In this document: piece by piece, positions 12,297-54,072 of the stretch
Position numbering within the stretch: position 1 is the first letter of the stretch
Layout of the letters: each line of letters opens with the position of its first letter
Assembly: GCA_965226885.1 (NCBI GenBank)
Contig: CBDDEL010000015.1
Coordinates: 96,001 to 160,000, forward strand
Reading direction: 5' to 3'
Source: Opitutales bacterium
Lineage (GTDB): Bacteria > Verrucomicrobiota > Verrucomicrobiia > Opitutales > UBA2987
Length of the DNA stretch: 64,000 bases
Program-made: the position numbers and the translations under genes
Notes under the pieces: generated by a model
Told to the model about the DNA's origin: nothing
The model's input: the letters and a program-made list of their open reading frames with translations, nothing else
Databases searched by the model: none

Positions 12297-12412
12297 TTTT
12301 TCTGGAAAATGCTTAAGACTTAAAAATTGGAAAACTTAAAAGTTTGAAAAAGGCGGGTTCCCCCAGAAAATGCAACCGTAAAGCCGATGGCGGTGGCATT
12401 CAAACCAGGATT

Positions 12413-13180
12413 ATGAAGGAGAGGCAATTACCCTTGGAGGTGGAAGCATTTTTCCCGGAACTCCTTGCCTTGGCCCGCTCCTCGGGATTTGCCGTGGAAA
12501 CCATTGCCTCTTTGCCACCGGCGCCGGTCATTGCCTTGATTCGCCCGGGTAAAACGGAAAACCTGAAAGTTTACCTCTCAGCCGGAATCCATGGGGATGA
12601 GACCGCCGGGCCTCTGGCCATCCTGAAATTATTGCGGGAAAAGAAGCTCCATCCCGACATCGGGTGGCATATTTGTCCCGTCCTCAACCCCTGGGGCCTG
12701 GCCCGGAATCGACGGGACAATGAGGAAGGGCTCGACCTGAACCGCGATTACAAGTCTATTGTTGCCCGGCAAACCGGCCATCACATCGATTGGCTGAAAA
12801 GACAAAACACCTCCTTCTCCCTCTGCCTGACCTTGCACGAGGATTGCGACACCGAAGGTTTTTACCTCTACGAGCTGAACGAGCTGAACCCAGACAACCT
12901 GCCATCACTGGTCCCCGCCATTATGGAAGCCGGCGGCAAACCGTGCGGGATCGATCAATCTCCGGTCATCGACGGCTGCCCCGCAAAAAACGGCGTTTTA
13001 CACCTACCAACGGATTTGGAGGCCCGGCCCGAATGGACGGAGACCGCCTACCTGGTGGCCAATCACAGCCGCATGGCCTACACCCTGGAAGCCCCGGGAA
13101 AAAAGAAGTTGCATCTGCAAATAGAAACACACACCGCCGGGGTCGAAGCCGCCATCAATCATTTTCGGAACAATTTTTAA
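12413..13180 (+). CDS. M14 metallocarboxypeptidase / succinylglutamate desuccinylase-like protein
   Basis: GIHGDE, NPWG, DLNR, LHED zinc-binding motifs. Confidence 0.8.
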   Translation: MKERQLPLEVEAFFPELLALARSSGFAVETIASLPPAPVIALIRPGKTENLKVYLSAGIHGDETAGPLAILKLLREKKLHPDIGWHICPVLNPWGLARNRRDNEEGLDLNRDYKSIVARQTGHHIDWLKRQNTSFSLCLTLHEDCDTEGFYLYELNELNPDNLPSLVPAIMEAGGKPCGIDQSPVIDGCPAKNGVLHLPTDLEARPEWTETAYLVANHSRMAYTLEAPGKKKLHLQIETHTAGVEAAINHFRNNF

Positions 13181-13210
13181 TCACGGATTACACGGATGAA
13201 CACGGATAAT
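13180..13210 (+). repeat. Left arm of 9-bp periodic inverted repeat (CACGGATNA x3)
   Basis: ATCACGGATTACACGGATGAACACGGATAAT; 28/31 identical to the reverse complement of 15768-15798. Confidence 0.85.
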
Positions 13211-13260
13211 TCCTTAAATAATACTCGAAAATCACTATCTATATAATATCCAAGCTTATC

Positions 13261-13286
13261 TGATGTGTACTGGAAAAAGTGGACAC
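13261..13286 (+). mobile_element. Solo IS3-B-like left end
   Basis: TGATGTGTACTGGAAAAAGTGGACAC, 25/26 identical to the IS3-B left end; no transposase follows. Confidence 0.7.
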
Positions 13287-13732
13287 CAAGTTTTCACCTC
13301 AATAGTACTGAGGATTGATTCCTTTTCAAACCTCTCTCTAAAAAATCGTAGCGCTTAAAATGAAGAAAAAATTTGATCGAAAATTTCGATTCTTAGTGCG
13401 TATTGTTGAGGATGACTTGCTGGAGTTGAGTCAGCGGTTAGAAATTTTTAAAGAATTGTTTTATAAATCCACCGAAGACACGAAAAAACTTTACGAAGTG
13501 GACGGTGTTATTTTTGACACATTTCGGAGAGTTATGGCAGAAAATCTTACGGTATTCATTTCTCGACTTACGGATCCGGCAAAAATGGGAAAAAAGAAAG
13601 ATATCACTTTGGAAACTGTATTAAATTTTTGTGAAGAAAGTGGAGATGAGCAATTTTTCACAATTATTAAACCAGAATACGATAAATTATATGCAAAAGT
13701 TCAGCCAATAAGAAATCGAAGGAACAAAACTC

Positions 13733-14528
13733 GGTAGTGTTAACATTTTGAATGTTTAAGCTGTACTTTTTAGCGTGATTATGTTGTGAACTGGGAATGG
13801 TCCATATCACAGTAAAATGTCCTCAATGCGGAAGCGATCACATCATCAAGCACGGCAAGGATCCGAAAGGGGTTCAGAAGTATCGATGCAAGGGGTGTGG
13901 TTATCAGTTTCGGCTTCACCCCAAAAGTCGTGAGCATCCTCCGGCGCTGGTCAAGCAGGTGCTCCGTGCGCACCAAAACCGGATGAGCCTGCGTGCCATT
14001 TACCGTACCTTCGGGGTAGCCCCAAAGACGGTCATCGAATGGATTAAAAAAAAGTCCTGAGTTTGCCGAAGCTGGAGTCCACTCTGCTTGCCCGCCAGTG
14101 TAGTGATGTGCTGGAACTGGACGAGGTGTGGTCATTCTGGGGCGATAAGCGTTCGGGGCAGGTATGGCTATGGGTAGCCTTGTGTCGACGTACCCGACAG
14201 GTCGTCGGGTTTTCTCTGGGTGATCGTAGCGATCAAACGTGCTGGCAGTTGTATCACAACATCGCCCAGCCCTATCGCGACTGTGCCACCGTAAGCGATT
14301 ACTGGGAAAGCTACGACAAGGTTTTCCCTCACAACAGCGCCAGCGGGAAACAATCCGGCCAAACCGCCCATATCGAACGCTGGAACAATACCTTGCGACA
14401 GTCCCTGTCACGCTATGTGCGTAAAACGCTGTCATTCTCGAAGTCTTTGGTCATGCATTTTCGCGTCCTGTGCTTGTTCATCTGGGAATACAACAGCAAT
14501 ATCAAACATTCGTCATGTTAACACTACC
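13733..14528 (+). mobile_element. IS1-family element A (796 bp)
   Basis: Ends GGTAGTGTTAACA/TGTTAACACTACC; insA 13797-14060, insB to 14521 (ELDEVW, HIERWNNTLR); duplication CAAAACTC. Confidence 0.95.
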
Positions 14529-14780
14529 CAAAACTCTTGCCCATAAGGACCATAAAACCTCAATTCTACCTGATCAACATTATTTAATGAAGGTAAGCCC
14601 AAGCCTATTGGACGAAGTGTTTAAATTAATGAGTGAATTCATGAATAAGATAAATGGTCATTTTTGGAACCGCAGCTTGAGTTATAATAGATGGAGCGAA
14701 CGACATGTAAGGCGGCTTGTTTCTATGATTGGAAGTAGCGATTACAAAAATACTGAGAGAACGAGAAGTATAAATAATTG

Positions 14781-15582
14781 GGTAGTGTATTAAGTAAGAA
14801 TGGTGGCTAATTCTTGATTATATTGATGAATGAAAAGTCTCAGACAGGTTTCATGCATACTCTTAAGCTTGGAAAAGGAGAGGGTTTTGCGTGTGAAACG
14901 ACCCAGTCGTTGGCGCAGGGTATTGTTCCATCGTTCCACATGGGCCGTTTCACCGGTTTCTTTTCCCACGGATCGGTTATGAGGAAAGACTTCATCATAA
15001 GTGCTCCAAAAGTCGCTGTAGGTGGCACATCTTTTGTAGGCCCGTGGCAGACGCTCGTAAAGTTCCCGGCAACGATACCAATCCCGAGGCCCAATGGCAT
15101 AGGAGAGGATTTGACGGGTGCGTCGGCAAAGAGCGATCCAAACCCATTGGGCATCGCTCTTGCGCCCCACAAAAGACCACAGTTCGTCCAGTTCAATGAC
15201 ATCATGGCGGCGGGCCGCAAGAATCGTGCTTTTGAGCGGTCGCAGCGATTGTCGTTTTTTTTAACCAACTCAAAACGGTGTTGGGACTCACCCCGAAGGC
15301 GCGCTGTAAACCGCGTAGACTGCTGCGTTCCTGATAGACTCGAAGGATCATTTCTTTTTGCTCTTCGGTGTATTTCACTGTGGGGTTTTCGCGGCTTTGT
15401 TTACCACAATCATGGCAGCGGTAGCGCTGTTTATGGTTGGGCGTCTTGCCAAATTTAATGATATTTTCACTTCCACAGTGCCGACAATTAATAATTTTAG
15501 TAACCATGCACTAAGAATAAACTGCCTAACGCTATTTGTACAGCTAAAAATACAAAATAACATTCTTTTTTTATACACTACC
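14781..15582 (-). mobile_element. IS1-family element B, copy 2
   Basis: Near-identical to 7656-8457; duplication AATAATTG. Confidence 0.96.
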
Positions 15583-15767
15583 AATAATTGATTCTTAGTT
15601 AATGTGTAATAGACCCTTGGATATGTTTGTTTTTAACTGGTTGGGTGTGTAATGTGCTCACGTTTTTACTTTCGGCAGAAGAATCGTATTTCTTTCTCTT
15701 AATCCAAATGTTTCATAGAACCGCAACCACGGATAACTTTAAAAATAGCTCTTGAAAGGTACTTTCT

Positions 15768-15798
15768 ATTATCTGTGTTCATCCGTGTAATCTGTGGT
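15768..15798 (-). repeat. Right arm of 9-bp periodic inverted repeat
   Basis: ATTATCTGTGTTCATCCGTGTAATCTGTGGT. Confidence 0.85.
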
Positions 15799-15851
15799 TG
15801 AAAAATTAACGAATCGATCAGCCTCATTTACTGTGGTTGGCTTTTTTGAAA

Positions 15852-16664
15852 TTATGGGGTTAATTTGGTCAGAGTTTGGGTGTCGAGGCCCATACGCTCG
15901 TGGCAAAAGTTGATCCAGTCCTGGGGGAAGGGGGCTGAGAATTTCTGTTCGTTATGGCCGTTGGGTTCGGGTAGTTGAAAAATGATTTGCGATGCGTGGA
16001 GGGCTTGCCGGGGCAGGCGGAGACTTTCTTTCATGTCCGGCGTCCATCCGTTTTCGATGAATTGGAGGTAGTAATTCTCGTCGGGGCCGTAGATTTTGTC
16101 TCCTACGATGGAGTGGCCCAGCCATTGGGCGTGCACCCTTATCTGGTGCTTGCGGCCCGTTTCGGGTTTTACCCTGGCTAAAGTGAAACCATTGGAGGCG
16201 GCCAGGGGTTCGAAATGCGTGACCGCCCTTTGCGATGTGCGGGATTTCCTGATCGCTTGTTTGACGTAAACGGGGCTGGCTCCGTCCCGTGCGATGCGCC
16301 GGTTGACCGTAACGGGTTCGGCCAATTCGCCCTCCAGAAGCGCCAGGTAGCTTTTTTCCACTTTTCGCTCCTGCAATGCCATCTGGTAGGTGCGGGCGGC
16401 CGCTTTGTGTTTGGCCAGTAAAACGAGGCCGCTGGTTTCGCGGTCCAGCCTGCTGATGAGGTGCAGGGTTTCCAGGCCGGTATGGAGGCGGGCGGCCCCC
16501 ACCAGGCTGGAACGGGGGCCGTTTTTTGAGGGATGGCAAACCACCCAGCCCGGTTTGTCCATGACCAGCAGGTCGTCGTCCTCCCGCAAAATCCACTTCT
16601 CGAAATCCGCCCCATCGATAAGAGGGGCCGAAGTGCCTTCCATTTTTTTAACGGTATCCACCAA
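15852..16664 (-). CDS. RluA-family pseudouridine synthase
   Basis: DKPGW, SRLDRETSG, TGRKHQIRVH, IVGDKIYG, QALHA. Confidence 0.93.
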   Translation of the reverse strand: MVDTVKKMEGTSAPLIDGADFEKWILREDDDLLVMDKPGWVVCHPSKNGPRSSLVGAARLHTGLETLHLISRLDRETSGLVLLAKHKAAARTYQMALQERKVEKSYLALLEGELAEPVTVNRRIARDGASPVYVKQAIRKSRTSQRAVTHFEPLAASNGFTLARVKPETGRKHQIRVHAQWLGHSIVGDKIYGPDENYYLQFIENGWTPDMKESLRLPRQALHASQIIFQLPEPNGHNEQKFSAPFPQDWINFCHERMGLDTQTLTKLTP

Positions 16665-35143: not shown

Positions 35144-35298
35144 AAGTCAAGAGTTTTCTCTTAATTGCCAGTTATCGGTCATTTTCCAACATATTCTCCA
35201 TAATTTCCAAGAAGCGCCCGAAAAGTCCAAAATTATCTCAATTTCCTCATCCCCAGAAGCTCCGCCGCGTTCAGAAGCTCCGCCGCGTTCATGAGAGG

Positions 35299-35566
35299 CT
35301 TATACCACAAAAAAAGGAAAACGTCAATGGATAGGTTGGCTCCGTTTGATGCGTTTGAATAAACTTCGATTTTCGGGGTATTTTTCGCCAAAAAAACCAA
35401 ATTTCACCTAAAAAGCACCCTCCTGACAGATAAAAAACCGCCAATCACCGATAATATACCCCAAAATATCGTAAAACCGCAGATCGCACAGATAAACACA
35501 GTTAATAAAAAAGCATATTTACCACTACTGCATAATTATCTGTGTCCATCTGTGTAATCTGTGGTA
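35299..35566. repeat. Non-coding dispersed element copy 2 (leftward promoter TTGACG-17-TATAAG, GGCTCCGTT motif, empty CACAGAT hairpin at 35475-35566)
   Basis: Aligns with 818-1021; arms 35475-35506 and 35535-35566 are inverted, 25/32 matching. Confidence 0.75.
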
Positions 35567-35574
35567 AAAAATTA

Positions 35575-35603
35575 GGTAGTGTATTCCTACTTAATACACT
35601 ACC
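35575..35603. mobile_element. 29-bp IS1-B scar (both ends fused)
   Basis: GGTAGTGTAT + TCCTACTTAATACACTACC = the two IS1-B termini. Confidence 0.8.
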
Positions 35604-35823
35604 TAAAAAAGTATAAATATCATATAATTTCATATTTGTTCCGTAAAGAATGTAAACGCCGGGATGAAACCGGTACGGGGGTCGGGGTAAAACCGGTACG
35701 CTTGGAATAAGGTTTAGGTTAGTAATTGCAGGTACGTCAAGGTTTAGGGTTTGGGAGTTGGTTTTGGGGATTGGCTTGGGGTCGGTGAGGAGGCCGGAGG
35801 CCGACGAGCCGGGCCCAAGGCGT

Positions 35824-41160: not shown

Positions 41161-41416
41161 TATTCTATGTGTCCAGAAACGTTTTTGAACCTATGAGTTC
41201 TTCTCAATCCTCCGTTTATCAATTCAATATGCAATTAAAAAACCGACCAGCCTCTCCGGCTGTGGAGGAGCGAATTTAAAAGCATCGCCTCTCGGTTCGA
41301 CTCTTGACAAAAACACTTTTTGTTTCCTTCCCATATTGACGATTCCGTTAAAAATCCCGCGAAAACCCCCGAAGAGTCATTATTTTAAAAACCGTGATGA
41401 AATTTCCACTTCATAA

Positions 41417-41488
41417 TACATGTTCATCCGTGAAATCCGTGGTCAAAAATATACCTCCCTACTCATCTGCGTTATCTGCGGTTCAAAA
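41417..41488 (-). repeat. Two right-arm copies of the 9-bp periodic repeat
   Basis: TGTTCATCCGTGAAATCCGTGGTCAAAA and CTCATCTGCGTTATCTGCGGTTCAAAA. Confidence 0.7.
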
Positions 41489-53564: not shown

Positions 53565-54072
53565 AACCTGAAAGAATTAAACCTCGGTTTCAACGGGCTC
53601 AGGGATATTAGCGCCCTGAGCGGACTCACCAACCTTACAAGGTTAAGCCTCAACCAATTGCTAGACCCGGTCAGCCTCCTCTTTTCAGTCAACCGCAACC
53701 AGATTAGCGATATCAGCGTTTTAAATGGGCTCACTAACCTGACGAGATTAGACCTCAACTACAACCAGATCAGCGATCTCAGTCCCTTGAGCGAACTCAC
53801 TAACCTGACAGAGTTGTACCTCGGATTCAACCCGATCCGTGATATCAACGCTCTGAGCGAGCTCACCAGCCTAACAACTTTATACCTCTTCGAAAGCCAG
53901 ATCCGTGATATCAGCGCCCTGAGCGAGCTCACCGGCCTGACAACTTTATACCTCTTCGAAAGCCCGATCCGTGATATCAACGCTCTGAGCGAGCTCACCA
54001 GCCTGACAACTTTACACCTCTTCGAAAGCCAGATCCGTGATATCAGCGCCCTGAGTAAGCTCACAAGTCTAG

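Follow-up and report, generated by a model that had tools for sequence, protein, structure and literature searches.

The closest described relatives of the element examined here are the intervening sequences (IVSs) of 23S rRNA genes, as in Coxiella burnetii and Leptospira, in which a small open reading frame (ORF) of the S23p type (PF05635) lies between inverted repeats, with a stem of ~28-30 bp and tandem heptamers. According to PMC4990558, ORF-bearing IVSs have a terminal-inverted-repeat stem of 28 bp, carry three tandem heptamers before the ORF (GACAGAT three times in Coxiella), and are excised by RNase III. Gene and repeat have each been treated elsewhere: PMC3424549 describes the PDDEXK_3 family as of unknown function and subject to multiple transfers, and intergenic heptamer direct repeats are treated in PMC4679880, the accessible part of which does not cover inverted arms around genes. 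Literature searches on PDDEXK_3, GxxExxY, PF13366, PF05635, and related terms (supplements excluded) found no description of flanking repeats. Here, we analyze a window of 64,000 nt (by which we mean the whole stretch, positions 96,001 to 160,000 of contig CBDDEL010000015.1 in assembly GCA_965226885.1, from an Opitutales bacterium of the Verrucomicrobiota), in which a pair of inverted, heptamer-built arms encloses an AT-rich cassette with one HEPN_AbiU2 gene, broken by two IS1 copies and lying between a gene for an M14-type carboxypeptidase and rluA.

With moderate confidence, we read this interval as probably a loaded and now dead member of a family of hairpin-armed micro-cassettes, in which a defence-type RNase gene stands where a GxxExxY gene usually stands. 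The data establish the arm family itself, its empty and loaded forms, an orthologous site that lacks the cargo, a cargo of foreign composition, and a recent, polymorphic IS1 insertion; arm copy number shifts fast among close genomes, and arms end multi-copy units and enclose a nuclease gene in many lineages. In what follows, G000 is the window's own genome, G001 to G004 belong to the same genus, and G006 belongs to the same family; these relatives are metagenome-assembled genomes in which genes were called crudely as longest ORFs and in which absence cannot be proven from contigs.

An inverted-repeat search of the window recovered two arms of 37 nt each (13174-13210 on the + strand and 15768-15804 on the − strand) that are 89% complementary and 2557 nt apart, with 28 of 31 positions complementary in the 31-nt core and all three mismatches being G-U on the HEPN sense strand. 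An 18-nt two-unit pattern allowing up to three mismatches matched the window four times against 0.33 expected, and none of 100 shuffles reached four, so that the arm pair proposed by the initial annotation of this DNA is real and beyond shuffle expectation. The left arm, arm B (nhmmer E 3.7e-11), reads TTTTTAAT followed by CACGGAT TA CACGGAT GAA CACGGAT AAT, that is, a (TT)AACC end followed by three helically phased C[AG]C[AG]GAT heptamers; the pair agrees with the cassette design of two to three phased units of ~9-10 nt starting (TT)AACCAC, and the same arm borders the GxxExxY genes of loci L030 and L241. The T-run of arm B takes in the last codons and the TAA stop (13178-13180) of the M14/AstE-type carboxypeptidase gene (12344-13180, + strand; PF24827 and PF00246). 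The right arm, arm A, also a profile match and with an orthologous arm in G004, lies ~45 nt past the stop of the RluA-type pseudouridine synthase gene on the opposite strand (15852-16664, − strand; PF00849, E 2.3e-29), and a degenerate inner arm, a (15723-15745, + strand), is homologous by alignment to the inner arm of an empty element in G004. An intrinsic terminator was considered and rejected, its polarity being wrong with the T-run before the stem and the A-run after it. Rfam gave nothing at gathering score in the window and no rRNA match, the surroundings of the empty hairpin described below yielding chance matches far below gathering. Matches to CACGGAT with a 66-bp period at 53835-54039 (region 53700-54060) belong to leucine-rich-repeat coding DNA with 22-residue repeats and are unrelated to the arms.

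Without both IS1 copies, the cargo measures 943 bp between the arms (1005 bp including the 31-nt arm cores) at 34.1% GC, against 55.6% in the M14 gene and 57.2% in rluA, and is foreign by composition. Its sole gene is a HEPN_AbiU2 gene (PF18734, E 3e-8; score 33.8 bits, cut-off 26.8), and the AT-rich, one-gene HEPN cassette of the initial annotation is thereby upheld. Behind an AT-rich leader (13211-13359, + strand), the 5' part of the gene (13360-13732, + strand) runs for 124 codons and ends inside the R..H motif region (..IRNRRNKT), where IS1 copy a (13733-14528, + strand; 796 bp) is inserted with the duplication CAAAACTC at 13725-13732 and 14529-14536 and terminal repeats at 13733-13757 and 14504-14528. 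The 3' part (14529-14780, + strand) continues in frame at 14530-14778 (..LAHKDHK..), such that the R-x(4-6)-H motif reads R-N-K-T | L-A-H across the junction and aligns with RHKRLAH of relatives. IS1 copy b (14781-15582, − strand; 802 bp) splits the stop codon, with the duplication AATAATTG at 14773-14780 and 15583-15590 and terminal repeats at 14781-14802 and 15561-15582, and is followed by an AT-rich trailer (15583-15722, + strand). Both inserts are IS1 by their Zn_ribbon_InsA and DDE_Tnp_IS1 domains, terminal repeats, and 8-bp duplications, and G000 holds 231 near-full IS1 copies (40 of type a and 191 of type b).

Contigs of four public runs were compared with the locus for population alleles. 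In run X5, a contig joins position 13724 to 14529 with eight letters shared and thus lacks IS1a, which means that an allele without this copy exists in nature and that the HEPN gene was continuous there. No contig of the four runs spanned the whole-cargo junction, and joints linking arms of opposite strands stemmed from other arm copies. Searches for promoter-like sites on the + strand of the leader, and promoter and terminator scans of leader and trailer, gave nothing above shuffles, and no public RNA run was listed as containing the locus. A word-indexed search of 5.8 billion proteins for close relatives of the HEPN protein returned the query itself only, a metagenome pattern scan for it gave 168 matches of which none was confirmed, and the nearest relatives found are 25-29% identical. 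The element is dead in this organism, broken by two IS1 copies, and of small practical importance there.

A comparison of orthologous sites, as suggested by the initial annotation, yielded an empty counterpart. In G004, whose rluA is 87% identical, the homologous flank after rluA is followed by arm A, a loop, the degenerate inner arm a, 12 nt, and arm B, free of cargo, and relative to this arrangement the 2.5-kb cargo of the window sits exactly between arms a and B. Past arm B the genomes diverge, with the M14 gene in the window and a tetratricopeptide repeat (TPR) gene in G004. The convergent M14 and rluA genes of G006 are separated by an arm-free spacer of 68 bp, and G001 has no arm beside rluA, its local sequence there equaling that beyond the element in G004. 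Since the arm cluster stands at the same rluA end without cargo in G004, the arms came first.

A profile made from 12 copies (nhmmer) found 36 arms in G000 at E<=0.05 and 72 at E<=10. All but one of the 36 (35/36) lie outside ORFs of at least 120 aa, though such ORFs span 82% of G000, and they are arranged as short hairpins (24-39 nt between arms; n=5), tandem direct arms (n=3), and solo arms. The empty hairpin of the initial annotation is real: at 35476-35573, a degenerate + arm and a well-kept − arm matching the profile are separated by a 25-nt loop and fold as single-stranded DNA (z −4.9), unlike a lone arm (z 0.29; 117 of 200 shuffles fold equally well). Among the further copies that had been proposed, the inner arm at 15723-15745, with its sister counterpart, and two tandem arms in direct orientation at 41410-41480 (− strand; 41410-41450 and 41465-41480; profile match) hold up, and two are weak and degenerate, at 591-613 (− strand; nhmmer E 2.4) and at 991-1022 (− strand; nhmmer E 2.0), the latter behind a copy of a 180-nt repeated module. 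This module also directly precedes the empty hairpin (35296-35475, + strand, the second window copy being 819-981); it has 23 copies in G000, 11 of them with an arm within 250 nt, and its core of 50-66 nt is 94-97% identical across dozens of sister-genome copies. Just past the empty hairpin, at 35579-35608, two IS1-type terminal repeats adjoin each other without intervening DNA (GGTAGTGTATT..AATACACTACC), a ~30-bp IS1 miniature or footprint. Elsewhere, a tandem word of 7-8 nt (TATCCAG/CATCTAG; GATGCTG on the other strand) adjoins arms, at L274 650-710, G000:C14:177850-177880, and C15:601960-602030.

The initial annotation had also held that every copy is intergenic and next to accessory DNA. 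The intergenic position is borne out by the counts above, and the accessory link is mostly base rate: repeated DNA (at least 88% identity over at least 400 bp) makes up ~36% of the G000 assembly (816 regions), and a repeat is found within 1 kb for 24 of 31 arm loci and for 56.5% of non-coding, non-repeat positions drawn at random, the figures within 100 nt being 8 of 31 and 17.7%. Enrichment of arms near accessory DNA in this IS-saturated genome is therefore weak.

Beyond G000, where a strict 17-nt pattern matched 16 times, the arm scan of five relatives gave 5 to 88 matches (G001 66, G002 5, G003 30, G004 88, and G006 60), and the reversed-pattern control gave 0 everywhere. A 27-nt three-unit pattern, searched in contigs of one genome per species, placed the motif at no fewer than 120 loci in Verrucomicrobiota, Bacteroidota, Planctomycetota, Acidobacteriota, several proteobacterial classes, Spirochaetota, Nitrospirota, and others. 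Among these, 49 inverted arm pairs are short and 18 wider, in a count that covers 120 loci, four of which overlap others and were retained. Elsewhere, the typical copy is a short hairpin that stands empty between housekeeping genes. Of the 315 ORFs listed for 76 non-duplicate loci of 6 kb, Pfam was run on 119 (70-420 aa, at most 420 nt from an arm), and these were mostly ordinary housekeeping genes; in G004, too, arms sit in the spacers of such genes (rluA, gltX, glnS, and a SpoU methylase gene). These neighbors and the small share of AbiU2 genes with arms (below) weaken the proposal that arms mark gene-acquisition hotspots, and active gene capture is not supported. Outside Verrucomicrobiota, the arm ends read GCCAC, ACCAC, or TCCAC. 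In G006, arms terminate non-coding units that have structured interiors and recur in several copies (identity 94.5% over 200 nt, 91% over 471 nt, and 86-92% over 271-375 nt), and in G004 a 180-nt module stands ahead of three arms, mazE, mazF, a further arm, and hicB, the arm behind mazF being solo and unfolded. The arms thus form a very widespread intergenic hairpin-repeat family, apparently unpublished, that exists empty and loaded in G000, in relatives, and in other phyla, as had been proposed.

Such arms normally enclose a small nuclease gene. Four of the 119 ORFs are PDDEXK_3/GxxExxY genes directly bounded by CACGGAT-type arms, as judged by Pfam and the arm profile, in the orders arm, gene, arm (L030), arm, gene, contig end (L039), arm, gene, hairpin (L029), and hairpin, gene, hairpin (L058); in L030 and L039 the arm contains an ATG that shares the reading frame of the ORF, and G001 has two GxxExxY genes, each of which lies between CACGGAT or CGCAGAT arms. 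In a sample of 401 Verrucomicrobiota genomes, 224 carry PF13366, many of them with numerous copies, and PF05635, the four-helix-bundle "23S IVS protein" family, was found in 97 of 151. For each gene, the 160 nt on its upstream side were scored for complementarity to the 160 nt on its downstream side; loci shorter than 3.2 kb were dropped, and shifted windows served as controls. Flanking inverted repeats with a score of at least 14 occurred at 17 of 28 PF13366 loci against 1 of 112 controls, and at 19 of 27 PF05635 loci against 0 of 108, which confirms the association of similar repeats with these two gene families that the initial annotation had put forward. GxxExxY arms have 2-3 units of 9-10 nt, start (TT)AACCAC, and carry a word that varies by gene (CACAGAG, CACGAAA, CACGGAG, CGCAGAG, CACAAAG, and others); the start codon or a Shine-Dalgarno-like stretch often falls inside an arm, and no more than ~10 nt separate the stop from the beginning of the 3' arm. 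One complete genome has 11 GxxExxY genes, 17-64% identical, of which 10 have their own word on both sides and one (L222) an upstream arm only. The protein alignment conserves G..E..Y and a D...E.K triad. A structural model (pLDDT, the predicted local distance difference test, 97.5) weakly matches lambda-exonuclease/Cas4-type cores and archaeal Hjc (best E 4e-4), and no relative was found in the PDB by sequence; these weak generic matches support a PD-(D/E)XK fold and nothing more specific.

Other observations concern individual GxxExxY loci. At ~1150-1500 of L241 (G001:C10), a tandem duplication of 209 bp takes in the upstream gene end, the 5' arm, and the GxxExxY gene up to its nucleotide 75. 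In six genomes of the same order (loci L150, L156, L161, L166, L169, and L213), a GxxExxY cassette with the words CGCAGAG, CACAGAG, or CACGGAG stands between gatA and gatB; the gatA-gatB spacer of G000 (C13, before 34438) is 11 nt and empty, and is too distant from the loaded relatives to set ends.

Taken together, the window locus may have arisen as follows. The arms would serve as terminal inverted repeats of a family that, in this bacterial family, takes several forms: solo, tandem, short empty hairpin, multi-copy non-coding unit, and tight shell on GxxExxY (PF13366, PD-(D/E)XK). An arm cluster (A, inner a, and B) at the rluA 3' end would predate the split from the sister species, and in the window lineage a horizontally acquired AbiU2-type HEPN gene was presumably placed between a and B, after which one IS1 would have split the catalytic R..H region and a second the stop codon. 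The cargo may have entered, or been kept, via the same machinery or site preference that puts GxxExxY genes between arms, candidate routes being GxxExxY nucleases acting in trans on phased heptamers or break-prone palindromes capturing DNA. By analogy with ORF-bearing 23S IVSs, the arms could pair in a read-through transcript into a ~31-bp stem of the type that RNase III cuts there, and such a stem might insulate the transcript of the host and hold a toxic gene in check.

We acknowledge that several results weigh against assigning the HEPN unit to this family. As the arms came first at the rluA end, the cargo may simply have landed in them. Unlike GxxExxY arms, which abut their ORF, the window arms lie 150 and ~180 nt from the HEPN ORF, and the HEPN unit is single-copy, relatives and the protein and metagenome searches having yielded no further arms-plus-HEPN copy to indicate movement as a unit. 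AbiU2 genes occur in 9 of 401 genomes of the phylum, and only two of the nine are armed, the remaining seven being arm-less single-gene islets between housekeeping genes. No target-site duplication was definable in the flanks of the G006 copies or in the comparison of G001, G004, and G000. The only GxxExxY gene of G000 (G000:C10:30133-31305) is split by IS1 and has arms of another word, CACAAAG (TTCGCACAAAGACACAAAG), with an inverted copy ~170 nt downstream. A tree built from 43 GxxExxY proteins does not group the four whose arms are of the CACGGAT type, with only L030 pairing with the CGCGGAT-armed L219 (support 100/94), and the arm word is therefore not strictly tied to a protein clade. Finally, pairing covariation is absent: 19 hairpins of mixed G/A composition have 22 GC pairs against 21.4 expected and 15 GT against 11 AC, and in 37 clean hairpins the G/A choice matches between arms mainly since entire hairpins are all-G or all-A, so that selection for an RNA stem is not demonstrated.

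How far these results favor other explanations differs from case to case. If the locus were a coincidence in a junk spacer, the arms would be REP-like intergenic repeats, and an unrelated AT-rich HEPN islet and two IS1s would have landed in a non-essential AT-rich spacer, an account in keeping with the cargo-free arms of G004, with arms punctuating housekeeping spacers there and at most of the 76 loci in other phyla, with the seven arm-less AbiU2 islets, with the loose fit of the arms on the HEPN ORF, and with a genome of 231 near-full IS1 copies and 36% repeated DNA. We nevertheless hold it to be unlikely, if a serious contender, as GxxExxY genes are wrapped by these arms both within the genus and across four phyla, as the arms bound multi-copy units in G006, and as the distant second armed AbiU2 gene, that of genome G201, which shares 25% identity with the window's, is preceded by a CGCAGAT-type arm of three units, directly after the upstream stop and ~110 nt before its start. 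Two armed AbiU2 genes of nine would have odds of ~0.01 if ~2% of spacers hold an arm, a rough estimate rather than a test, which is suggestive, not decisive. A purely RNA-level device, with the arms as a 5'-3' clamp by which the enclosed mRNA is silenced or processed, and without any role in mobility, would account for the Shine-Dalgarno-like stretches and start codons in GxxExxY arms, for 3' arms so close to the stop, and for the G-U nature of the three window-arm mismatches on the sense strand, and IVS stems are RNase III substrates according to PMC4990558. Most copies, however, enclose nothing that could be clamped, being empty hairpins, tandem arms, or solo arms, variable positions do not covary, and a copy number of 5 to 88 among close genomes together with multi-copy non-coding units requires spread at the DNA level; such a device taken by itself is improbable.

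Two known mobility systems were weighed in the same way. Were the arms attC- or attI-like sites served in trans by an integron integrase, the HEPN gene would be a captured cassette, and the locus does resemble integron cassettes and clusters of attC sites lacking integron-integrases (CALIN) in that small accessory or toxin-type genes are parted by a hairpin-capable repeat with copies far from an integrase. G000 indeed has an integrase gene in two halves (186.7 and 233.8 bits; C10:135438-135905 and 138425-138898), the Verrucomicrobial arm ends ..TTCAAC / GTTGAAA.. match the R'' (RYYYAAC) and R' (GTTRRRY) boxes, which in attC sites end an imperfect palindrome of 57-141 nt, at 6 of 7 positions, 11 of the 23 module copies lie within 250 nt of an arm, and the G004 module heads three arms, mazE, mazF, an arm, and hicB. 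The split integrase, however, is on another contig, and its surrounding 16 kb hold no arm at E<1 and no convincing attC-like palindrome series; the AAC/GTT boxes are not kept outside the phylum (GCCAC, ACCAC, TCCAC), the arm behind mazF in G004 is solo and non-folding, and GxxExxY units carry a single arm at either side of the ORF rather than a 3' hairpin. Moreover, what is conserved in attC sites is their structure and not their sequence, whereas the arm sequence itself is conserved across phyla, and we regard the integron account as quite improbable, slightly more so than the RNA-level one. The ~2.5 kb between the integrase halves carry two reverse-strand ORFs and are probably a mobile DNA insert. 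Movement as repetitive extragenic palindromic (REP) sequences by a Y1 (HUH) transposase, the REP-associated tyrosine transposase (RAYT), is very improbable and largely refuted. Two inverted units with a short spacer do look like REP doublets forming hairpins (REPINs), G000 has a Y1_Tnp gene (C13:439746-440075) plus a fragment, and REP/REPIN-RAYT units (REPtrons) similarly comprise short intergenic repeats, inverted pairs that form hairpins, and one gene type nested between inverted copies. Yet the nested gene here is the PD-(D/E)XK gene GxxExxY rather than an HUH Y1 gene, the G000 Y1 gene is unflanked by arms, the closest arm being 23 kb off, and a single arm is non-palindromic, so that the REPIN-like label given initially fails in the strict sense; of the co-occurring nucleases it had named, GxxExxY lies inside such arms and the Y1 (HUH) genes of G000 do not lie near them. 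REPs, unlike the arms, are not known to be built of direct heptamer repeats, and they are lineage-specific, whereas the arm motif is cross-phylum.

Our reading of the locus, then, is an IVS-like or miniature inverted-repeat transposable element (MITE)-like hairpin cassette carrying unusual cargo. With IVSs it shares a likeness of design, the IVS element lying inside a host transcription unit (PMC4990558), and the design of Verrucomicrobiota four-helix-bundle genes outside rRNA is the same as that of IVSs. In contrast to IVSs, the window element lies between protein genes (M14 and rluA) rather than in rRNA helix 45, its arms start with CAC and have a 9-10 nt period, the cargo is HEPN or GxxExxY rather than S23p, and many copies are empty. 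As in MITEs, there are terminal inverted repeats, a non-coding interior, near-identical copies (G006), and a copy number that varies strongly between relatives; unlike in MITEs, a matching transposase and target-site duplication were not found, the ends are three phased heptamers, and the HEPN-loaded unit is single-copy, the only candidate enzyme being GxxExxY, whose model has a predicted generic PD-(D/E)XK core. Compared with the GxxExxY-type heptamer-armed cassettes, the window locus has the same arms, a spacer between host genes, and gene-less hairpins in the same genome, but its arms do not abut a PF13366/TIGR04256 ORF of ~125 aa and its cargo is HEPN_AbiU2. That cargo resembles AbiU2-type HEPN abortive-infection genes in scoring above the Pfam cut-off and in the R-x-K-x-L-A-H motif common with relatives, and differs from other AbiU2 genes in being broken by IS1, in its 25-29% identity to the nearest found, and in a cassette that holds no partner gene.

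More broadly, the arms might be the ends of a cross-phylum class of mobile hairpin cassettes with an exchangeable interior (GxxExxY, AbiU2 HEPN, toxin-antitoxin, or structured non-coding DNA), moved in trans by heptamer-reading GxxExxY nucleases, which would make them a gene-capture platform related to the rRNA IVSs and separate from integrons, REP/RAYT, and the insertion sequences known so far. We put this forward tentatively, as a possible but doubtful extension.

The GxxExxY and four-helix-bundle "IVS" proteins are large families without an assigned function, and they now have a concrete, testable context: both are wrapped in repeat-built inverted arms, and one arm type is common to many phyla and also occurs empty, around non-coding DNA, or around another defence-type gene. 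To this the present analysis adds a variant with HEPN cargo, an orthologous site that is empty, and multi-copy units of non-coding DNA, and the window copy shows that the shell can hold cargo other than a small nuclease gene. Such findings raise the questions of whether the arm is the substrate of the nuclease and whether the shell is a vehicle for other genes, for a test of which the window and G004 provide a natural pair of loaded and empty sites.

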